From assembly GCF_057098645.1 (NCBI RefSeq), contig NZ_JBXSPU010000004.1: a stretch of 11,304 nucleotides of DNA; one strand, 5' to 3'. Origin of the DNA: a plasmid. Made by a program: the position numbers and the translations under genes. Below, one piece after another: positions 15-11,304 of the stretch (positions within the stretch are counted from its first letter, which is position 1; each line of letters starts with the position of its first letter). The notes beneath the pieces were generated by a model, which worked only from the letters and a program-made list of their open reading frames with translations, was not told the DNA's origin and ran no database searches.

Positions 15-189
15 CACTATCACCGCTTTTGAGTGGGCAGACACCGCTCGCCGCAGCCGAACGACCGAGCGTAGCGAGTCAGTGAGCGAGGAAGCGGAAA
101 AGCGCCTGGACGCGCATTTTCTCCTTACGCATCTGTGCGGCATTTCACACCCGGAACGGTGCACTTTTCATACAACTCGCACTGTTGCC

Positions 190-300
190 ACATAAGTAAG
201 CCAGTATACACTCCGCTATCGCTACGTGACTGGGTCATGGCTGCGCCCCGACACCCGCTAAAACCCGCTGACGCGCCCTGACGAGCTTGTCTGCTGGCGA
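190..300. other. bom / oriT-like nick region of ColE1-type plasmids
   Basis: taagccagtatacactccgctatcgctacgtgactgggtcatggctgcgccccgacacccgc matches the pBR322 bom segment as I recall it; the nic-type motif TATACTGGCTTA is on the minus strand at about 197-209. Confidence 0.55.
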
Positions 301-341: not shown

Positions 342-536
342 TTATGGTTCCGTGCCGTACTGCGCTTCAAAGTGTGTCTGTATGCTGTTACCGAGTTCTT
401 CCGCCAGTTCGTGCAGTCGTTCGCACATGGCGGCCTGTTCGTCTGCATCCAGTGCATCCAGTTTTTCGAGCAACGTCAGGCTCTGGCTTTTGATAAATCG
501 CGCCATGTTGAGCGCGGTCTGCTGCTGTTTGTTCAC
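342..536 (-). CDS. rop: Rop/Rom, RNA I-RNA II pairing modulator
   Basis: 64-aa ORF MNKQQQTALNMARFIKSQSLTLLEKLDALDADEQA... aligns along its length with the 63-aa ColE1/pMB1 Rop (MTKQEKTALNMARFIRSQTLTLLEKLNELDADEQA...); it sits at the expected place beside bom. Confidence 0.9.
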   Translation of the reverse strand: MNKQQQTALNMARFIKSQSLTLLEKLDALDADEQAAMCERLHELAEELGNSIQTHFEAQYGTEP

Positions 537-756
537 GTTCTCCCTTCTCCGTTACTGGTGTTTACGTCCGGCTGTGCGTCACCTGGTCATCACGCTAGGT
601 GACGTCACTGAAAATTATCACACAAGCCCCGTCGTGTGTGGGCTGCGCGACATTAACACCCCGTGACGCTTATTTTTTGCTGAATATGTGCGCGATTTTC
701 TGTCTGCGTTGTGTGCAGTTGTCGTCATAAACATGAACGTTCCGCCGGTTCCTGAT

Positions 757-791
757 GTGCGTCACTTTGACGTTTTGACAAAGTGACGCAC
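757..791. repeat. Perfect 13-bp inverted repeat with 9-bp spacer (operator-like palindrome)
   Basis: gtgcgtcactttg-acgttttga-caaagtgacgcac read directly; contains TTGACG and TTGACA hexamers. Related GTGACG palindromes at 575-582 and 599-608 (gtgacgtcac). Confidence 0.45.
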
Positions 792-1158
792 GGGAGGTGC
801 TTGCGCAAACCCGCGAATAACGGCGTTTACCGCGTGATTTTTTTACATCTGACAACGTGACCCGGCGTGATGGCCAGTTCTGGCCAGAGACGTTCGCGGG
901 GTGTCGGGGCGCAGCCATGACCGGGTGGCGTTTGTCCGGTCGTGTGTGCGCGGTCCGACAAATGCACATCCTGTCCCGTCCCGTTTTTCGCTCGGTTTTT
1001 ATTGATTACCGGACAGACGAACCCGGATTGCCATATTGCGAAAATCACGTTAAAACGATTACGAGCGTGCAGTTGGGCTGATATATCAACAGTCATGCCA
1101 ATATGTATTAACCCGACAGGCCGCTCTTTTTAATTCCAATAAAAATATAAATACGAGT

Positions 1159-1353
1159 ATGAATCAGGACAAAGCAATTTATTTAGAAAATAAATATTTT
1201 TCACCCGCAAACGAAGCTGTCAGACTGGAGCGTGAAGGCGATTACATTGGAGCATGGAAAAAATGGAATGATGCGCTTCATTATGCCAAAGGAGAAAATA
1301 TAGGTTGGTGTATAGCCAGAGCTGAATATTGTAAAAAGACAGGCCGGTTTTAA
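1159..1353 (+). CDS. Hypothetical small protein (64 aa), possibly a helical TPR-like fold
   Basis: ORF with AT-rich upstream region and A/T-rich codon usage unlike the flanking GC-rich DNA; only a weak Shine-Dalgarno. No family recognised. Confidence 0.35.
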   Translation: MNQDKAIYLENKYFSPANEAVRLEREGDYIGAWKKWNDALHYAKGENIGWCIARAEYCKKTGRF

Positions 1354-1367
1354 TTCTGGCGGGGTTT

Positions 1368-1386
1368 CAAAGGGGCGCCCCCTTTG
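1368..1386. other. GC-rich stem-loop just after the 64-aa ORF stop
   Basis: caaagggg-cgc-cccctttg, an 8-bp perfect stem with 3-nt loop; no following T-tract, so not a canonical intrinsic terminator. Confidence 0.3.
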
Positions 1387-1489
1387 GCACCTCGACGTAT
1401 CAAAATGCACCAGCATTTTGTATACAGTCGGTCATGTGCCTCCAGGATTTACCATCAAAAACGCCCCTGTAGTTAATCCTGAATCAAGG

Positions 1490-1584
1490 TATAACTAAGA
1501 TATAATTAGCGTATAACTAAGGCATAACTAAAGTATAACTAACTTGGTGTGCATATAATTAACATATAACTAATGTATAACTAA
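1490..1584 (+). repeat. Array of about eight direct repeats of TATAACTAA phased at 11 bp (iteron-like)
   Basis: Copies start at 1490, 1501 (tataattag), 1512, 1523 (cataactaa), 1534, 1554 (tataattaa), 1565 and 1576; one degenerate slot near 1545. Confidence 0.7.
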
Positions 1585-1770
1585 CGGTTCACCAACGGAT
1601 CGCATGTAGTAGACGCTACATAAAAAATCCTGAAATGGAGGATTCGTCATAAAGAGATTCTTTTTTTTAGCGTTCTGATGCAGAACAGGGCAAACACCGC
1701 AAAAATGATGAAAAACTGATTAACCATACTGTCTGTATTCTGAATGAATTACGAAGCATAGCGATAAATT

Positions 1771-1797
1771 AAAAAATCCCCCTGGATTACAGGGGGA
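1771..1797 (-). terminator. Intrinsic-terminator-like hairpin plus U-tract (minus strand)
   Basis: Plus strand aaaaaa-tccccctg-gatta-caggggga: 8-bp perfect stem; on the minus strand the hairpin is followed by TTTTTT. Confidence 0.4.
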
Positions 1798-1904
1798 AGC
1801 TATCAGAGTTTGAGTAATGAGAAATATTATTTTGGAGAGAGCATCACAAATGCGCTCTTTTCCAATCTGCCGTAACCATCGGCAAAAGACAATCAGGACA
1901 GGCG

Positions 1905-1931
1905 AAAAAATCCCCCTATATGGCAAGGGGG
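1905..1931 (-). terminator. Intrinsic-terminator-like hairpin plus U-tract (minus strand)
   Basis: Plus strand aaaaaa-t-ccccct-atatggca-aggggg: 6-bp GC stem; minus-strand T6 follows. Confidence 0.4.
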
Positions 1932-2028
1932 TGTCAATGAGGACATGGCAATTGTGAGTTTTGTGTGTGTTTTATGTGTTGCAGTTTGCAACGTCAGAAA
2001 TTTGCCGTAGTTCGTCATGAGAGACAAC

Positions 2029-2070
2029 AAAAAAATCCCCCGTGACTGGTGGAGGCCAGGGCAAGGGGGG
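2029..2070 (-). terminator. Intrinsic-terminator-like imperfect hairpin plus U-tract (minus strand)
   Basis: Plus strand aaaaaaa-tcccccgtgactgg...ccagggcaagggggg; CCCCC/GGGGG and CTGG/CCAG arms; minus-strand T7 follows. Confidence 0.3.
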
Positions 2071-2279
2071 TAGCAAATGCCTGAATAATTTTCGTAGTTT
2101 TGATATACCCATCGTTGCAACCGCAACGGGATGAATTTGCCGCAGTTGTGCGCGAAAAACAATCCTGATTCCGGGACAGGATGTGTAATCGTATAACCGC
2201 GCACGCACGGCTATGCGATTACCACCTGGTCAGGGCTTTGCCCCGACACCCTCGACACCGTTCCCGCGATACGATAGAA

Positions 2280-2483
2280 GGGGTTCTAAGCCGGAAACCC
2301 AGAAAATTCCGTCACCAAAGCTAGTAATCGACAGATTTGCATGACGTTGAATAGGTGACGGGTTATGTGACGATATTTGGTGTCGAAATCGTTGTTTCAG
2401 TGACAGTCACTCAATCGATCGTTTGTGTGACACTCCCGTAAAAACTTGTCGCAGAAAAATCCAGGTTTCCGGCCGGGAACCCC
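2280..2483. mobile_element. 204-bp miniature element with Tn3-family-like terminal inverted repeats and 5-bp target duplication (TIME-like, non-autonomous)
   Basis: Left end GGGGTTCTAAGCCGGAAACCCAGAAAATTCCG; right end read inward GGGGTTCCCGGCCGGAAACCTGGATTTTTCTGCG. Both start GGGGTTC like the transposon IRs at 7516 and 11303. Flanked by identical TAGAA at 2275-2279 and 2484-2488. No ORF inside. Confidence 0.6.
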
Positions 2484-2571
2484 TAGAACATCAGGGCGCG
2501 TTTCCGGGTAAACGCATGTTAATGACCGGGAATTCATTGATCAGGGACCGGAGACGCGCTACAAAACTCCT

Positions 2572-2713
2572 GCGCGTTTCTGGCATCAACTGACCATGGG
2601 GATGGTTTGGCAGTAGCAGCAAGCGCCAGAAACGCGCTCAAAACGCCTCTGGCGGCAAAACCATTGCCCGATGCAAAAAAGTGCGTTACAAAGCCTCTGA
2701 GCGCGTTTCTGGC
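2572..2713. repeat. Nested inverted copies of GCGCGTTTCTGGC forming long-range hairpins, followed by a T-tract
   Basis: gcgcgtttctggc at 2572-2584 and 2701-2713; its reverse complement at 2624-2636. The pair 2624-2639 / 2698-2713 is a perfect 16-bp inverted repeat. T6 at 2716-2721. The 15-mer CTGAGCGCGTTTCTG recurs at 3466-3480 inside cer. Confidence 0.5.
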
Positions 2714-3097
2714 GTCTTTTTTGTTGCTGTGTCGCTATACTCGTTGTCAGATTCGCGCTCAATCATCACTGATTAATCTGCGCTTATCCTTCGACTGATC
2801 ACGCTGGTATTTTTTGACAACCGGTTCCCATGAAAACGCCAGACGGGAACCGTCATCCGCACCCTCTGACATGCTGGGGATTAAAAATCCCTGTGCCGCA
2901 CAGCCGGCGTTGCATAAAATTCCGCTCTGCGATGAGTATTGTTTAATCAAAAATCCCCTCGTTTTCTCCAGAAAAACGCGAGTCTGTTCTCATGCCCCGG
3001 ATGCCCACACCCCACGCAAAACCAACTTTTTTCTGATTTGCTTTTTAAATCATGTTGTTATGGTTTGAAAAATATATTTTCTTATTCAGATTTATAC

Positions 3098-3270
3098 AAA
3101 AGCGAGTCGTCGGCGACTACTGGATGATTCGGCAACGAGTCGTCGGTGATTTATCGATGACTCAACACACTGTCTCCCTGGTGTTCAGAAAAAGCGAGTC
3201 GCCAGAGAGTCGCGAGGAAAAATACTGGATGACTCGCTGATGGCTCCCGGGGTGAATCGCTCACGACTCG
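3098..3270. repeat. Cluster of GAGTCG / CGACTC-containing direct and inverted repeats
   Basis: (G/A)CGAGTCGTCGG at 3101-3113 and 3134-3146; ACTGGATGA(T/C)TCG at 3118-3130 and 3224-3236; GAGTCGCC and GAGTCGCG at 3196-3213; CGACTCG at 3264-3270. Confidence 0.5.
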
Positions 3271-3299
3271 TCTGTAACTACTGTCTGATTTCTTCTCAT

Positions 3300-3516
3300 C
3301 AGGGCTGAAAACGTCCGAAAATGCGCCTTATGGGAATCAGGCGCGCCCAAACCGATCGCCATTCAGTTTCATGCATAGTCATGCAGTGCCATGAAAACAA
3401 TCCTGACGTATTTTTCCGGTTTACCCGGGGGGAAAACATCTCTTTTTGCGGTTTTTGCGTCAGAATCGCGCTGAGCGCGTTTCTGCGGTGCGTACAATTA
3501 AGGGATTATGGTAAAT
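3300..3516 (+). other. cer-type multimer resolution site (accessory sequences plus XerC/XerD core)
   Basis: Core at 3487-3516 reads GGTGCGTACAA-TTAAGGGA-TTATGGTAAAT, which is the ColE1 cer XerC arm, 8-bp central region and XerD arm as I recall them. About 190 bp of upstream accessory sequence includes an ARG-box-like segment near 3360-3385. Left boundary approximate. Confidence 0.8.
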
Positions 3517-4873: not shown

Positions 4874-6346
4874 ATGGATAAAGTCACTGATAATTCTCCA
4901 GATGTGGAGAGCACAGAATCTACTGAGGGGTCATTCCCAACCGTTGGGGTTGATACTGGCGATACGATTACAGCGACGCTTGCAACTGGAACTGAAAATG
5001 TTGGTGGAGGCGGTGGAGCATTTGGTGGGGCCAGTGAAAGTTCTGCTGCGATACATGCAACCGCTAAATGGTCTACCGCGCAGTTGAAAAAACATCAGGC
5101 TGAACAGGCTGCCCGTGCTGCTGCGGCTGAGGCAGCATTGGCAAAAGCGAAATCTCAGCGTGATGCCCTGACTCAACGTCTCAAAGATATTGTTAATGAC
5201 GCTTTACGTGCTAATGCCGCCCGTAGTCCATCAGTAACTGACCTTGCTCATGCCAATAATATGGCAATGCAGGCAGAGGCTGAGCGTTTGCGCCTTGCGA
5301 AGGCAGAGCAAAAAGCCCGTGAAGAAGCTGAAGCAGCAGAAAAAGCGCTCCGGGAAGCAGAACGCCAACGTGATGAGATTGCCCGCCAACAGGCTGAAAC
5401 CGAGCATTTGTTAGCTATGGCTGAGGCTGCTGAGGCTGAAAAAAATCGACAGGATTCTCTTGATGAAGAGCATCGGGCTGTGGAAGTGGCGGAGAAGAAT
5501 CTGGCTGAGGCTAAAGCTGAACTGGCGAAGGCTGAAAGCGATGTACAGAGTAAGCAAGCGATTGTTTCCAGAGTTGCAGGGGAGCTTGAAAACGCTCAAA
5601 AAAGTGTTGATGTGAAGGTTACCGGATTTCCTGGATGGCGTGATGTTCAGAAAAAACTAGAGAGACAATTGCAGGATAAGAAGAATGAATATTCGTCAGT
5701 GACAAATGCTCTTAATTCTGCTGTTAGCATTAGAGATGCTAAAAAAACAGAAGTTCAGAATGCTGAGACAAAATTAAAAGAAGCTCAGGATGCGCTTGAG
5801 AAGAGTCAGGTAAAAGATTCTGTTGATACTATGGTTGGGTTTTATCAATATATAACCGAACAATATGGAGAAAAATACGCAAGAATTGCTCAGGATTTAG
5901 CGGAAAAGTCTAAAGGAAAGAAAATTAAAGGTGTTGATGAAGCTTTAGCTGCATTTGAACAGTATAAAAATGTACTGGATAAGAAATTCAGTAAGGTTGA
6001 TAGGGATGCTATTTTTAATTCTTTAGAGTCTGTTAATTATGATGAGTTATCTAAGAATTTAACGAAGATATCAAAGTCGCTTAAAATCACTAGTCGAGTA
6101 TCTTTTCTATATGATGTTGGTTCTGATTTTAAAAATGCAATAGAAACTGGTAACTGGCGTCCTTTATTTGTCACGCTGGAGAAAAGTGCGGTAGATGTAG
6201 GTGTTGCAAAAATTGTGGCATTAATGTTTAGTTTTATTGTCGGCGTGCCTCTTGGTTTCTGGGGGATTGCTATTATCACAGGTATTGTTTCTTCTTACAT
6301 AGGGGATGATGAGTTGAACAAGCTTAATGAATTGCTAGGTATTTAA
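4874..6346 (+). CDS. cta: Pore-forming colicin of the E1 family, colicin 10-like (490 aa)
   Basis: Gly-rich N-terminal region, then [20 protein letters not shown]...[13 protein letters not shown]...LAHANN...ERLRLAKAE matching colicin E1 as I recall it. C-terminal channel domain ends [21 protein letters not shown]...LGI (E1: GIWGIAIVTGILCSYI...EVLGI). The length and the TonB-box-like DTITATL at residues 30-36 fit colicin 10; the symbol is tentative. Confidence 0.9.
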
Positions 6347-6848: not shown

Positions 6849-6957
6849 GTAAACGAAAAAACCGCCTGGGGAGGCGGTTTAGTCAAAGGTTAAGTCAGTT
6901 GGGGAACAGCTTAACCGGGTAACTGGCTTCAGCAGAGCGCAGATACCAAAAACTTGT
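6849..6957 (-). ncRNA. RNA I antisense copy-number regulator
   Basis: Antisense to the 5' ~110 nt of RNA II; its 5' end corresponds to the complement of cagataccaaaaacttgt (pBR322 RNA I begins ACAGTATTTGGTATCTG); three-stem-loop region. Ends approximate. Confidence 0.65.
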
Positions 6958-7478: not shown

Positions 7479-7515
7479 CTTGCTCACATGTTCTTTCCGG
7501 CGTTATCCCCTGATT

Positions 7516-7553
7516 GGGGTTCCGTGGGAATTTCTGCGATAACACCCGCTAAG
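7516..7553 (+). repeat. Left 38-bp terminal inverted repeat (IRL)
   Basis: GGGGTTCCGTGGGAATTTCTGCGATAACACCCGCTAAG. Confidence 0.85.
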
Positions 7554-7699
7554 CGATTCCTCCCTGACGGAAATCACTTGTTTTCCGTCAGGTCCTGCAG
7601 TTGAAGAAAATTGAATCCATAAATCTGTGATTTTTTGCGTGACAAACCCTGTCGGAATGAGAAACTGTACGGAAACTTCAATTTTAAGGTTTGTCGTAC
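7554..7699 (+). promoter_or_regulatory. res site (resolvase binding subsites) and tnpR promoter region
   Basis: 30-bp palindrome cctgacggaaa-tcacttgt-tttccgtcagg at 7563-7592, plus further TGTCGGAA / TGTACGGAA / TGTCGTACA half-sites at 7648-7700, between IRL and tnpR. Confidence 0.55.
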
Positions 7700-8323
7700 A
7701 TGTTGATTGGTTATATGCGGGTATCAAGCAATGATGAACGTCAGTCAGTTTCTTTGCAGCGTGATGCGTTGATTGCTGCTGGAGTGGATCCCCGGCATTT
7801 ACATCAGGATCATGCTTCAGGTGCTCGTGATAATCGCCCGGGACTTAAGTCCTGTCTCGCTGAACTTCGCGAAGGTGATGTACTGATAGTCTGGAAACTG
7901 GATCGACTTGGTCGTTCACTCTCACATTTGCTCCGAATTATTGAAGACCTGAAAATTCGTGGTATTGCTTTCCGATCATTGACTGAATCTATTGATACAA
8001 CAACGCCACACGGCTCGTTCCTCTTTAACCTTTTTGGCACGCTCGCGGAGTACGAAAGAACACTTATCACAGAACGCGTTAATGCTGGTCTGGCTGCTGC
8101 TCTCCGGCGGGGGAGAAAAGGCGGAAGGCCACCGGCGATAGATGCTGAAAAGGTTGATCAAATCCTCGCAGCTCTGGAAGGAGGTGCCAGTAAAGCGTCA
8201 GTATGTCGCGCATTCAGTGTGCCACGCTCAACGCTCACCGATACTCTACGACGAATTGGCTGGGCCGGACCTGGGGGGCGTAATCTGACAACGGATCAGA
8301 GCAATGTCATTTCTCGACTCTAA
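7700..8323 (+). CDS. tnpR: Serine recombinase (resolvase), Hin/Gin invertase-like
   Basis: MLIGYMRVSSNDERQ...RPGLK...GDVLIVWKLDRLGRS...GIAFRSLTESIDTTTP...GRKGGRPPA parallels Gin (MLIGYVRVSTNDQ...GDTLVVWKLDRLGRSM...GINFRSLTDSIDTSSP...GRIGGRPPK) as recalled. I place the start at ATG 7700 (AAGG about 10 nt upstream); the ORF track starts at an upstream TTG, 7691. Confidence 0.85.
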   Translation: MLIGYMRVSSNDERQSVSLQRDALIAAGVDPRHLHQDHASGARDNRPGLKSCLAELREGDVLIVWKLDRLGRSLSHLLRIIEDLKIRGIAFRSLTESIDTTTPHGSFLFNLFGTLAEYERTLITERVNAGLAAALRRGRKGGRPPAIDAEKVDQILAALEGGASKASVCRAFSVPRSTLTDTLRRIGWAGPGGRNLTTDQSNVISRL

Positions 8324-11270
8324 ATCGTACGATACGCTTTTTGGATTACCTGAACTTTATGAGGATGCACTTCCCCGGTTTTCGCTCTCCTGCGAGGATA
8401 TTGCATTCGCCAGAACTCATCGTCGATCTCATAACCGTCTGGGTTTTGCCATTCAGCTTGCACTTGTCCGTGATCTCGGTCGTACACTGCGTGCAGGAGA
8501 GATTCCCCCGGAGGCTGTTATCACCGTTGTTGCGGAACAACTGGATATTGACCCTGCTGTTTTTACACTTTACGCACAACGTGAGGAAACCCGCCGGGAA
8601 CATGCCCGCGAAATAGTTTCGGCTTTGGAGCTTCGTTCCGTCCGGAGTAGCGATTACAGAATGCTCATTATCGCGGCTACACGCGAAGCAGCAACCACCG
8701 AAAAAGGACTGCCGATCACCAGAGCAGTTATCAATAAGCTGAAGGACCAGAAGTTACTTGCCCCTGCTCCGGCACAACTCATCCGTCTGGCAATGGCGGG
8801 CCGGGCGGCTGCCCGTCGCCTTTCTTATCGGGAACTCATCAGGGATCTGAAACCTTCATCCATTAGCGCTCTCGAGCAGTTGCTTACCGAACGAGTCGGA
8901 GAAAAGAGCATTTTAGGCTGGATAGCTGAAGCGCCGGAAGGCGTGAAACTCAAGAATCTTAAGGGGTTAATTGCCAGGCTGGAGGTATTACGAACAGCGG
9001 CAATCTCCGATGAGCAACGTAAACGGATTCATGTAAACCGTTACGGTATTATTGCCCGGGATTCTCGCGTTTTACATGCGCGTGAAATACAACGAATGGC
9101 ATCCGAACGCTGTCATGCCACGCTGGTAGCCTTTGTTATTGAAAAGCAGGCAGCAATTACAGATCTGGCAATTGATATGTTCTGCAAATTGATTGGCAGC
9201 ACGAGGCGCAGAGCAGAGATAAGCCAGAAAGAGCGTCGTCTGAAAGCCGCTGAAGTACTTGAAGTCGTAGCTCAGGATCATATTAAGTTGGGACGGGCTC
9301 TCCTGGCAGCACGTGACGGTAATACTGATATTGAATCTGTAATAACAGCATCACTCGGCTGGGAAGGTTTGATTGCCAGTATGGAGGCTGCAGCTTCGGT
9401 GGCATCTTCCCATCACTGTTCTGAACTGGATGAACTTATCGGACGACAAAAATCATTACGTAAGCTTGGACGACTCATTTTCAGCGCTTTTTCTTTCAGA
9501 GCTTTTCGCCCGGATGATAGCGTTTTGTTGGCGATTGGGTATTTGCAGGCGTTCTATCATGGCCGAAAATTACCCAAACAAATTCCGCTCGATTTTATGT
9601 CCCATAAATGGCGACGTCGTGTCATCCATGGAGAAAATACCGATCTGCAGGCGTGGGAAGTCGCCGTATTCGTTCATTTGCGGGAACGCCTGAAAACAGG
9701 TGACATATGGGTTGATGGTAGTCGGGCCTGGCGTAGTTTTGAGGACTACCTTCTTCCTCACCATGTTTTCGGGCAGATGCGGGCAGAATCCCGGCTGGGA
9801 CTTGCCATTCCGGACAACTTTGCTGAATGGCGGGCTGAGCGAACCACCACACTCAACGCAAAACTGAAAGCGCTGGCAAAAGCTGCTTCGGAGAATGCCA
9901 TACCCGATGCAGAACTTTCCAGCAGAGGGTTGTCTGTGTCTCCGATTCGCGAAGAAGAGAGCGACAAAATTAAGGCTCTCAGCCGTAAACTCTACATGCT
10001 GGTACCACGCATCAGAATTACCAGTTTGCTGGCAGAAGTTCATAGCTGGACCAGTTTTCTTGATTGTTTCACCCATTATCGCACCGGGGAACAGGCGGAA
10101 GATGAAGCTGCACTTATGGCTGCGATCCTTGCCGATGCGACGAATGCGGGAGCAGAACGGATGGCGCAGAGTTCCCGGGGTGTCACCATTCACCAGATGA
10201 TGGTAATGATGGATCGTCATTTACGCACTGAAACCTATGCGTCTGCCACATCAGTTCTGGTCGATGCGCAACAGGAACATCCTTTTGCTGCTATATGGGG
10301 GGATGGGCATGTGTCATCCTCGGACGGGCAGTTTTTTCCTGCGGGTGGACGAGGAGAAGCCAGCCTCGAATATAACGCCAAATACGGCAAACGACCTGGC
10401 GCGTCGATTTATGGTTTTTTATCGAACCGTTTTGCATCCTTTTTTTCCAGAATGATTCAGGCCTCTGAAAGCGAGGCTCCCTACGTACTTGACGGCTTAC
10501 TTCATAACGAAAGTTCTGTGGTAATTCATGAGCATGCCACCGATACAGCCGGTGCGACTGAAACAACATTTTCAATGTTTCACTCTTTTGGTTACAGACT
10601 CATACCCCGTATTCGCAACCTCGGCAGTCGCAGGTTGTACGTTATTTCCCCCTCAGAGGAATATAAACCACTTGATGCCCTGATCGCCGGAAAGGCCAAA
10701 ATGGAAGTAATAGAACAGCACTGGGATGAAGTTCTGCGGCTTAAGGCCTCGATCGGCGCTGGTCTGGTACCACCATCGGTAATACTGAAAAAGCTGGCAG
10801 CATCTCCGAGACAAAACAGGCTCAATCTGGCCCTGCGTGAAATGGGACGTATTGAACGCTCAATTTTTATCTGTGACTGGTTGCTTGACACTCGGTTACG
10901 TCGCAGATCACACGCAATCCTCAACAAAGGCGAAAGCCGCCATGCACTTGCCCGCGCTATTTTTCTTCACCAACTGGGCGAATTCCGGAACAGGGCTGCC
11001 GAGACAATGGCTCACAGGGCATCGGGCCTCAACCTTGTTGTTAATGCAATAATTCTGTGGAACACGGTCTATCTCAGTCGGGCTGTTGATTACATTCGCA
11101 GCCAGGGGATCATTATACCGGAAGAGCTCTTGTCCAGTGTATCACCACTACCATGGGGTCATATCTCGCTCACTGGAGATTACCTGTGGAACGAAATTGA
11201 CCATCCCCTTGAACGATACAGGCCACTTCGTACTAATCGCTTCAATCCAAAGAACTTCACTTTTCCTTAG
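8304..11270 (+). CDS. tnpA: Tn3-family DDE transposase (988 aa)
   Basis: HNRLGFAIQLALVRDLG, NKGESRHALARAIFLHQLGEFRNR and NAIILWNTVYLSRAVDYIRSQG mirror Tn3 TnpA motifs (HNRLGIALQIGCVRFLG, NRGESRHAVARAICHGQKGEIRKR, NAVVLWNTIYMQAALDHLRAQG). Overlaps the tnpR 3' end by 20 nt. Confidence 0.93.
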   Translation: MSFLDSKSYDTLFGLPELYEDALPRFSLSCEDIAFARTHRRSHNRLGFAIQLALVRDLGRTLRAGEIPPEAVITVVAEQLDIDPAVFTLYAQREETRREHAREIVSALELRSVRSSDYRMLIIAATREAATTEKGLPITRAVINKLKDQKLLAPAPAQLIRLAMAGRAAARRLSYRELIRDLKPSSISALEQLLTERVGEKSILGWIAEAPEGVKLKNLKGLIARLEVLRTAAISDEQRKRIHVNRYGIIARDSRVLHAREIQRMASERCHATLVAFVIEKQAAITDLAIDMFCKLIGSTRRRAEISQKERRLKAAEVLEVVAQDHIKLGRALLAARDGNTDIESVITASLGWEGLIASMEAAASVASSHHCSELDELIGRQKSLRKLGRLIFSAFSFRAFRPDDSVLLAIGYLQAFYHGRKLPKQIPLDFMSHKWRRRVIHGENTDLQAWEVAVFVHLRERLKTGDIWVDGSRAWRSFEDYLLPHHVFGQMRAESRLGLAIPDNFAEWRAERTTTLNAKLKALAKAASENAIPDAELSSRGLSVSPIREEESDKIKALSRKLYMLVPRIRITSLLAEVHSWTSFLDCFTHYRTGEQAEDEAALMAAILADATNAGAERMAQSSRGVTIHQMMVMMDRHLRTETYASATSVLVDAQQEHPFAAIWGDGHVSSSDGQFFPAGGRGEASLEYNAKYGKRPGASIYGFLSNRFASFFSRMIQASESEAPYVLDGLLHNESSVVIHEHATDTAGATETTFSMFHSFGYRLIPRIRNLGSRRLYVISPSEEYKPLDALIAGKAKMEVIEQHWDEVLRLKASIGAGLVPPSVILKKLAASPRQNRLNLALREMGRIERSIFICDWLLDTRLRRRSHAILNKGESRHALARAIFLHQLGEFRNRAAETMAHRASGLNLVVNAIILWNTVYLSRAVDYIRSQGIIIPEELLSSVSPLPWGHISLTGDYLWNEIDHPLERYRPLRTNRFNPKNFTFP

Positions 11271-11303
11271 CGTGTGTTATCGCAGAAATGCCCACGGAAC
11301 CCC
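11266..11303 (-). repeat. Right 38-bp terminal inverted repeat (IRR)
   Basis: Reverse complement reads GGGGTTCCGTGGGCATTTCTGCGATAACACACGCTAAG; differs from IRL at positions 14 and 31. Confidence 0.85.
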
Positions 11304-11304
11304 T

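Follow-up and report, generated by a model that had tools for sequence, protein, structure and literature searches.

The window analysed here, an 11,304-bp stretch (contig NZ_JBXSPU010000004.1 of assembly GCF_057098645.1), is a complete ColE1-type colicin plasmid. Its long, gene-poor stretch from 540 to 3500 houses a cluster of GTGACG palindromes and an isolated open reading frame (ORF) of 64 codons, and a preliminary description of the sequence had proposed that the two constitute a small regulator with its operators. We interpret the region instead as three independent features: (i) a gene of the ANR (AraC Negative Regulator) family, (ii) a hairpin module at positions 561–878 that would act in cis and (iii) a miniature inverted-repeat transposable element (MITE) of the Tn3 family that was inserted later. 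We assign this reading a probability of roughly 60%.

The palindromes are present where the preliminary description had placed them. The sequence GTGACGTCAC lies at 599–608, and a perfect 13-bp inverted repeat, GTGCGTCACTTTG-N9-CAAAGTGACGCAC, lies at 757–791. No perfect inverted repeat in the window other than the latter (IR-2) reaches 13 bp, and in simulated sequences those of at least 10 bp number 0.3 on average; 10-bp palindromes are unexceptional by number (14 in the window versus 11.6 ± 3.6 expected). IR-1 (574–608) is a larger, imperfect repeat that has the palindrome GTGACGTCAC as its right arm, and the outer 9 bp, GTGCGTCAC/GTGACGCAC, are identical in IR-1 and IR-2. The window contains 10 copies of GTGACG where 4.5 are expected, a count reached in 1 of 200 shuffles. 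For GTGAC[G/C] the clustering is pronounced, with 7 sites in 561–878, or 22 per kb versus 0.46 per kb elsewhere (Poisson 2e-10). The recurrence of GTGACG within a miniature element near 2340–2430, also noted in the preliminary description, corresponds to copies at 2310, 2355 and 2367.

The hidden Markov model search and structure prediction that had been suggested for the 64-aa product place it in a known family. Residues 13–60 match NCBIfam model NF033650 (ANR) with 54 bits, well above the curated cut-off of 32 (E = 1.1e-14), and RefSeq already lists the product as ANR. Members of this family range from 39 to 80 aa (PMC4038620), a range that includes the ORF product, and the published signature consists of A, E, A, W, A, W and R plus a conserved C-terminal Cys (PMC4983702; PMC4038620). 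All of these residues are kept: when the product is aligned with 13 diverse homologues, the invariant positions are A20, E24, A32, W36, A39, W50 and C58, with R54 close to invariant. The diverse homologues were collected by exhaustive search, as a word search for close homologues gave only near-identical ANR alleles. With the diverse-homologue alignment as input, AlphaFold predicts three helices (residues 3–25, 29–42 and 46–61) with a mean confidence score (pLDDT) of 87.7. The nearest matches to this model in a fold search are MIT/TPR protein-binding helical modules, all of them weak (E > 0.1). Neither a helix–turn–helix nor a ribbon–helix–helix DNA-binding fold appears among the fold matches, no Pfam DNA-binding domain is found in the product, and a sequence search found no solved structure of an ANR protein. 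On sequence criteria, the ORF is an ANR-family (Aar-like) anti-activator gene, an uncharacterised allele of a known and already annotated family.

The gene is also conserved, a point on which the preliminary description had made its proposal depend. Compared with a 73%-identical allele (L082, 567–761), dN/dS is 0.36, indicative of purifying selection. The L082 allele keeps every family-invariant residue, and because all 33 nucleotide differences from the window gene fall in codons 6–49 between near-identical flanks, we regard it as a recombinant mosaic. The AT-richness that had been read as a sign of foreign origin is also borne out: the GC content of the ORF is 37.9% (29.2% at third positions), versus 47.3% for the window and 53% for rop, and the cki immunity gene is more AT-rich still (27.5%).

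What the family does bears directly on the palindromes. The archetype, Aar, binds the central region of the AraC-type activator AggR and also H-NS, and an electrophoretic mobility shift assay (EMSA) detected no binding to DNA (PMC4983702; PMC5570504). Binding and lowered activity of an AraC/XylS activator and/or H-NS have been shown for Aar and some of its homologues (PMC4983702; PMC4038620; PMC5570504). By homology, the window product would bind the dimerization region of AraC/XylS-type activators as well as H-NS, and would recognize no DNA. A protein acting in this way, by protein contact rather than by DNA recognition, would therefore have no operators.

The distributions of the two features lead to the same view. 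We counted ANR records by tblastn and module records by a match to the module or to IR-2, and determined the overlap by accession. In the plasmid collection the module is present in 42 records and the window ANR allele in 33, with ∼18 records containing both, ∼24 the module only and ∼14 ANR only. In metagenomes, a scan for IR-2 yielded 43 real contigs, of which 10 have ANR and 13 have a ProQ/FinO-family gene in its place. A Col156 plasmid (L016) that has a different replicon and no protein in common with the window shares with it only 561–878 (89.7% identity) and cer. An origin of transfer (oriT) also sits between the module and the ANR gene. Judged by these occurrences, the palindrome module is passed on separately from the ANR gene, and the palindromes are not ANR operators.

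Table 1. Annotated features of the palindrome region and its surroundings, in window coordinates
Feature	Position	Strand	Basis or remark
ColE1-type bom/oriT region	170–262	-	GGGTGTCGGGGCGCAGCCATGACC box common to both R64-type oriTs
rop (Rom/Rop RNA-binding copy-number modulator)	342–536	-	Pfam Rop, E = 1.2e-33; Rop family annotation in matching record
Conserved 318-bp non-coding module with all local GTGAC[G/C] sites	561–878		42 plasmid records, 43 metagenome contigs
IR-1: GTGCGTCAC-CTGGT-loop-CTAGG-GTGACG(T)CAC	574–608		Contains GTGACGTCAC; 37 nt upstream of the rop start codon
Leftward terminator-like hairpin, then AUAAUUUUCA	616–652 (feature 609–652)	-	RNA fold; nested 638–619 hairpin in terminator scan
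Solitary GTGACGC site	663–669	+	Within the longest invariant run of the module, 660–702
IR-2, perfect 13-bp inverted repeat	757–791		Left edge of the oriT-adjacent sub-block 757–878
GTGACCC site in second copy of TGACAA(A/C)GTGAC	857–863	+	Kept even in relatives only 75% identical
Left orphan oriT, I-complex (R64/IncK) type	897–985	+	Aligns with IncK2/Z pH2332-107 oriT; predicted nick ATCCTG|T, 973|974
Nearly invariant 185-nt leader, predicted nick to ANR start codon	974–1158	+	Alignment
ANR-family anti-activator gene, 64 aa	1159–1353	+	NF033650 match, RefSeq WP_001367294.1
GC-rich stem-loop after ANR stop	1361–1393	+	RNA fold -28.6 kcal/mol for 1340–1400, z = -3.3
Right orphan oriT, inverted relative to the left	2172–2251	-	80-nt inverted repeat, 75% complementary; aligns with IncK oriT
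Tn3-family-derived MITE, 205 bp	2280–2484		TAGAA duplications at 2275–2279 and 2485–2489
cer core	3487–3516		

The distant GTGACG copies do not belong to the same system, contrary to what had been supposed. They lie inside a MITE whose inverted ends begin with GGGG and resemble the inverted repeats of the resident Tn3-family transposon; it contains no ORF and no transposase. The empty site is intact in the sister plasmids L013, L014 and L002, and the element occurs in at least 158 other plasmids. The MITE is an independent, later insertion, and its GTGAC sites are therefore unrelated by descent to those of the module; the copies at 2310–2367 would simply have arrived with it. In its length of 205 bp, GGGG ends, 5-bp target duplication, absence of an ORF and large number of copies, it is like the TIME-like MITEs derived from Tn3 elements. 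It may be unlike them in having internal resolvase-type half-sites, and no named element was matched. By eye, the res region of the transposon (7555–7690) has GTGACAAACCCTGTCGG and the MITE has TGTCGAAATCG...CAGTGACAGTCAC in 2340–2430, and the GTGAC cluster of the MITE may represent such half-sites.

The module itself is non-coding, because frameshifting indels of 1–2 nt separate relatives. Two ORFs, 599–730 (plus strand) and 670–969 (minus strand), were considered as genes and rejected since such indels break both, and the second also runs into an oriT that differs between plasmids. The longest invariant runs of the module are 660–702, IR-2 and 610–628. IR-2 is identical in 35 of the 42 plasmid records, and a BLAST search with IR-2 alone returns the same 42 plasmids only, all of them small plasmids of Escherichia or Salmonella and cointegrates. 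When 100,044 species-representative genomes were scanned for GTGCGTCAC-N14-20-GTGACGCAC, 63 hits were obtained, approximately the chance estimate, and none of them was from Enterobacterales. The inner stems of IR-1 and IR-2 have different sequences, yet complementarity is kept in each. The right inner stem of IR-1 reads ACCAG in relatives, and over 23 distinct variants 98.3% of IR-1 cells are paired, with one double change from C-G to U-A that is seen in two variants. The IR-1 loop has two mirror forms that differ by lineage, TCATCAC(A/G) or its reverse complement, an inversion between the palindrome arms.

The second conserved structure of the module is a hairpin of 13 pairs on the minus strand, at 616–652, followed by a U-rich tract. 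Over the same 23 variants 90.3% of its cells are paired. Two G-U pairs are kept in 22–23 of the 23; these would be C-A mismatches on the plus strand, so that the stem is intact on the minus strand only. In an IncF plasmid of E. albertii (L012), the stop codon of a minus-strand gene precedes the hairpin sub-block by ∼15 nt. In four backbones an inverted repeat of the IR-1/IR-2 family is found 19–38 nt ahead of the start codon of a leftward gene. The gene is rop in the window, where it is the immediate left neighbour of the module, and also in L010 and L089; in L011 it is a 44-aa ORF and in the L093 class an unrelated gene. Homology to three other, unrelated left-hand backbone contexts starts exactly at the left arm of IR-2. 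The sub-block 757–878 lies ≤30 nt from an orphan oriT in 38 of the 40 metagenome contigs that are informative because their sequence continues. Both strands of the module fold better than shuffles (z ∼ -4). The covariance models of Rfam 15 gave no match in 561–1400, and RNAI (6853–6954) is the only family to reach its threshold in the window.

Based on these positions, we propose that the palindromes act in cis as hairpin-forming signals of a backbone module. Its left part would provide a leftward terminator-like hairpin followed by IR-1, serving as an insulator and as the 5′-leader of rop, and the insulator would shield rop and the replication-control region from transcription arriving from the oriT and cargo side. 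An extended -10-like sequence, TGTGATAAT at 622–614, overlaps the hairpin and would start transcripts at the GTGACGTCAC palindrome. The right part of the module, from IR-2 onward, appears to travel with the orphan oriT and probably assists or accompanies its function. The arrangement recalls terminator or insulator hairpins and 5′ stabilizing stem-loops: there is a minus-strand hairpin with a U-rich tail, located after a gene in L012 and upstream of rop in the window, and IR-1 falls at the predicted 5′ end of the rop leader. Unlike in terminator hairpins, the U-tract is interrupted, IR-2 has none, and IR-1 and IR-2 share the GTGCGTCAC stem base.

Two further observations concern the history of the module. 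In L015 (Col156/rop lineage, 1551–1720), exactly the interval between IR-1 and IR-2 (window 605–749) is lost and a hybrid inverted repeat is left; the deletion runs between 16-nt repeats of the form TCC(G/T)G(C/A)TGTGCGTCAC. In plasmids of E. marmotae and E. albertii (L008/L016 77–610, L009 1–1383, L012 1619–3109), one of them a 3.85-kb Col156 plasmid, the module adjoins orphan type VI secretion cargo that includes tssD/Hcp, Rhs, immunity lipoprotein and DUF4150/PAAR-like genes. We also considered, and set aside, a tandem duplication of a 183-bp unit: outside the inverted repeats its alignment score is 33, versus 22 ± 4 for shuffles with a maximum of 45.

To the right of the module lies a 1.4-kb cassette (887–2279) composed of a forward oriT, a leader, the ANR gene, an 11-bp repeat array, hairpin units and a reverse oriT. 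The two oriTs contain an 80-nt inverted repeat (899–978 and 2172–2251) that matches ∼990 plasmids, ranging from cryptic ones of 1.5–2.5 kb to large conjugative plasmids. In the IncK2/Z plasmid pH2332-107 the match is immediately upstream of mobA(nikA) and the relaxase gene, and both window oriTs align with the oriT of this plasmid, including CACATCCTG|TCCCG. In both copies an inverted repeat precedes the nick-region core ACATCCTG|TCCCG, which is present as CACATCCTGTCCCG. The exact nick position (973|974) is one that we take to follow from published RP4/R64 work; TCCCG is doubled in the left oriT (974–983). The ORF list and Pfam scans of the 11.3 kb reveal no mobilization genes. In an IncF cointegrate (L002, 5985–6010), the ANR leader follows another oriT inverted repeat, with the junction exactly at ACATCCTG|TCCCG, window position 974, which suggests that oriTs join at the nick by modular exchange or relaxase-mediated recombination.

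The leader presumably holds the ANR promoter, with TTGCCA-17-TAAAAC at 1029–1057 as a candidate. Its minus strand folds no better than shuffles (973–1165, z = 0), and a single-strand promoter of the Frpo type upstream of ANR was rejected on this result. ANR is the first gene past the predicted nick of the left oriT and there has the sense of the transferred strand; in a transfer from the right oriT, the strand that enters would be the template for ANR. Its position relative to the left oriT is like that of ygfA of F, which also lies in the sense of the transferred strand and is expressed only after second-strand synthesis (PMC9849209).

The whole cassette is found on Col(MP18) rolling-circle plasmids of 3.3–3.6 kb. 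Its carriers comprise colicin plasmids, small rolling-circle plasmids and IncF cointegrates, many of them from Shiga toxin-producing E. coli and from other human-stool or livestock E. coli. We propose, by analogy, that the cassette lets small plasmids without a relaxase hitch-hike on conjugative plasmids of the IncI/K/B/O type. pBuzz, reported by Moran and Hall in 2019 as cited in PMC9282650, has two inversely oriented I-complex oriTs and no relaxase, and is mobilized by a B/O plasmid. The window plasmid is like pBuzz in its two inverted R64/B/O-like oriTs and its lack of a relaxase or accessory gene, and unlike it in that the oriTs bracket cargo (ANR, the 11-bp array and hairpins) and in its ColE1-type replicon with its own bom.

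Sister plasmids without ANR (L004 1885–2095, L016 1085–1290 and many metagenome contigs) have one or two tandem reverse oriTs followed by a ProQ/FinO-family gene; their oriT variant is CATATCCTG|TCCC. The strain that contains L004 also contains a 55-kb IncI-type plasmid, L128, with an 84%-matching oriT located between mobC and the relaxase operon, and the two are likely a helper and hitch-hiker pair. We found no GTGACGC within 7 kb around the L128 oriT, so that the module was not simply copied from L128; a derivation of the module from the oriT flank of its helper was rejected on this ground.

A number of observations weigh against the three-feature reading, and in particular against the terminator and oriT roles that it gives to the module. 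The U-tract of the minus-strand hairpin is interrupted (AUAAUUUUCA), and a consensus scan of 561–878 found no sigma-70 promoter on either strand. Covariation is thin: two pairs have double changes, a level matched by 65 of 500 shuffles, and the sequences are closely related. IR-1 favors neither strand, and some lineages have its loop in inverted form, features that also fit a symmetric double-stranded protein site. Likewise, seven GTGAC[G/C] sites in 318 bp, some of them without a partner arm, resemble a protein-binding array. The adjacent oriT in the window lineage is oriented opposite to that of most relatives, and the adjacency of module and oriT could reflect shared ancestry rather than function. 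As for the ANR protein, the EMSA results cover Aar and not the window allele, and the ORF list and Pfam scans reveal no AraC-family ORF on the 11.3-kb plasmid that could be its partner.

Four other explanations of the palindromes were considered. If the 64-aa protein were a DNA-binding autoregulator or repressor, the GTGACG palindromes and the copies near 2340–2430 would be its operators. The palindromes are indeed real, clustered and conserved, the ORF is a regulator by its family name, and 370–560 bp of the same plasmid separate the two. A classical small repressor with palindromic operators likewise pairs a small protein with conserved palindromes close by, but the present case differs from it: no HTH or RHH fold is predicted, gene and palindromes are not co-inherited in plasmids or metagenomes, and an oriT intervenes. 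In addition, no binding of Aar to DNA was detected in EMSA and the family works by protein–protein contacts, and the distant copies are in an independent MITE. Independent inheritance largely refutes this model, to which we now give hardly any credence; from the regulator with operators that was originally envisaged, the regulator remains, as an ANR-family member, and the operators do not. A trans-acting protein that is not encoded on the small plasmid is a better candidate, although still an unlikely one. The GTGAC[G/C] sites would then be an array that boosts mobilization or maintenance when bound by a relaxosome accessory, partition-like or regulatory protein of a helper plasmid, or by a host factor. 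The density of sites, the common outer 9 bp of IR-1 and IR-2 together with the solitary sites, the constant adjacency to orphan oriTs and the absence of any plasmid protein common to all module carriers all speak for such an array, and an IR-1 loop that is free in its orientation fits a symmetric double-stranded site. However, the candidate helper in the same strain as L004 lacks GTGACGC around its oriT, the motif and hairpin are limited to ∼42 small plasmids or cointegrates of Escherichia or Salmonella and stand at chance level in species-representative genomes, and the inner stems, which differ between IR-1 and IR-2, stay complementary, which a protein that binds double-stranded DNA would not need.

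Alternatively, the hairpins could act in single-stranded transferred DNA, either as a priming signal of the single-strand initiation (ssi) type or as an Frpo-like promoter for duplex conversion in the recipient. In most relatives the module is directly on the leading side of a reverse-oriented oriT and would enter ahead of all other DNA. Both of its strands fold better than shuffles, and such a signal requires no protein from the plasmid and does not depend on the type of replicon. F and ColIb are established cases of single-strand promoters in leading regions (PMC9849209). Against this, the module has no sequence similarity to F or IncI leading regions, and stems of 13–14 bp are too short to rebuild both a -35 and a -10 element. 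The adjacent oriT of the window lineage has the opposite orientation, and the module would be transferred last from that origin. ColE1-type plasmids, moreover, already have primosome sites near bom. We therefore judge this explanation quite improbable. Finally, IR-2 could be the end of a recombining or mobile unit (IR-2, sub-block and oriT), with the palindromes as recombination sites. The exact start of homology at its left arm in three unrelated contexts, the precise loss of the IR-1 to IR-2 interval in L015, the inverted IR-1 loop and the exchange of oriT modules at the nick are all suggestive of recombination; but no recombinase is associated with the unit, loop or spacer length and sequence vary among variants, rearrangement mediated by short homology or by hairpins explains the deletion and inversion equally, and the plasmid already has a cer site. 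We consider this very improbable. A reading of IR-2 as a Xer, lox-like or resolvase site was dropped as well, given that its likeness to the cer arms is weak and by eye and that spacer length and sequence vary. A hairpin module acting in cis, independent of the ANR gene, thus remains the explanation that we favor.

Like Aar of enteroaggregative E. coli (EAEC) 042, p948_0450 and p948_1070 of enterotoxigenic E. coli (ETEC) and ROD_02851 of C. rodentium, the ANR gene of the window has the family match, the invariant residues including the Cys, a length of 64 aa and three predicted helices; the record for p948_0450 spans 195 nt, the length of the window ORF. It is also like the family in being AT-rich, horizontally acquired and present in pathogenic E. 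coli. Unlike the EAEC and ETEC members, which are near a cognate AraC-family gene, it has no such gene on its plasmid, although this is not a requirement of the family. Also unlike known ANR loci, it is accompanied by no fimbrial operon or dispersin/Aat system anywhere on the plasmid, and it resides in an orphan-oriT cassette of a colicin plasmid. We found no paper in the literature searched that links ANR genes to oriT cassettes.

The locus is accordingly not a new repressor–operator system, and its gene belongs to a known, annotated family of anti-virulence regulators. Only the placement of the ANR gene between two oriTs is mildly novel: with such a cassette, an anti-activator that also modulates H-NS would have a concrete means of spreading without its usual AraC partner. 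The module is a conserved backbone piece of small plasmids that is tied to orphan oriTs, with no evidence for more than a terminator and leader cassette. A bolder view, which we think improbable, is that ANR is the payload of the double-oriT cassette and, as the first gene to enter a recipient, an establishment factor directed against H-NS silencing or AraC-type regulators, with the GTGCGTCAC module as a new oriT-linked cis element. If so, the targets of ANR would belong to the new host or to the helper plasmid, and the GTGCGTCAC hairpin module would be one carried by hitch-hiker plasmids that lack a relaxase.

Downstream of ANR, the GC-rich stem-loop that the preliminary description had pointed out is present and is kept in relatives with one loop change. 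No U-tract follows its stem, the sequence there being GGCACCUCGACG, and the terminator scan does not list it, so it lacks the marks of a Rho-independent terminator. Just 3′ of ANR, at 1486–1585, is an array with an 11-bp period, made up of five and then three copies of (T/C)ATAA(C/T)TAA. The array is restricted to ANR-cassette plasmids and varies in length among sister plasmids; one Col(MP18) plasmid has a different sequence of similar length. Four minus-strand hairpins with following T-runs come next (1611–1637, 1771–1797, 1905–1930 and 2030–2060), spaced by ∼125–135 bp; the plus-strand sequence of three of the four is AAAAAATCCCCC...GGGGG. In form they resemble terminators for small transcripts of the minus strand, and the same type of hairpin is found 3′ of the ProQ/FinO gene in L011. 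The minus strand of 1354–2178 as a whole folds with z = -4.9.

Elsewhere on the plasmid, the bom/oriT region on the far side of rop is one that we take to be similar to the bom region of pBR322. Between the MITE and cer there are two further sets of repeats: a perfect inverted repeat of 17 nt, CGCCAGAAACGCGCTCA/TGAGCGCGTTTCTGGCG, whose arms stand 57 nt apart, together with more copies of GCGCGTTTCTGGC (2572–2716), and a GAGTCG/CGACTC cluster (gagtcgtcggcgac... and gagtcgccagagagtcgcgagg...) at 3100–3260, upstream of the cer region. The remaining genes are exc2, those for a pore-forming colicin, its cki immunity protein and lysis, and the Tn3-family transposon. The closest public record is NZ_CP062882.1, from an E. 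coli O157:H16 of pig origin, and the window is essentially the same plasmid. The sole difference between them is the location of the 3.79-kb transposon (window 7514–11304 and 5309–5315): in NZ_CP062882.1 it interrupts the colicin gene, whereas in the window it is inverted and placed between the replication region and the window start, and the colicin ORF is intact (490 aa).

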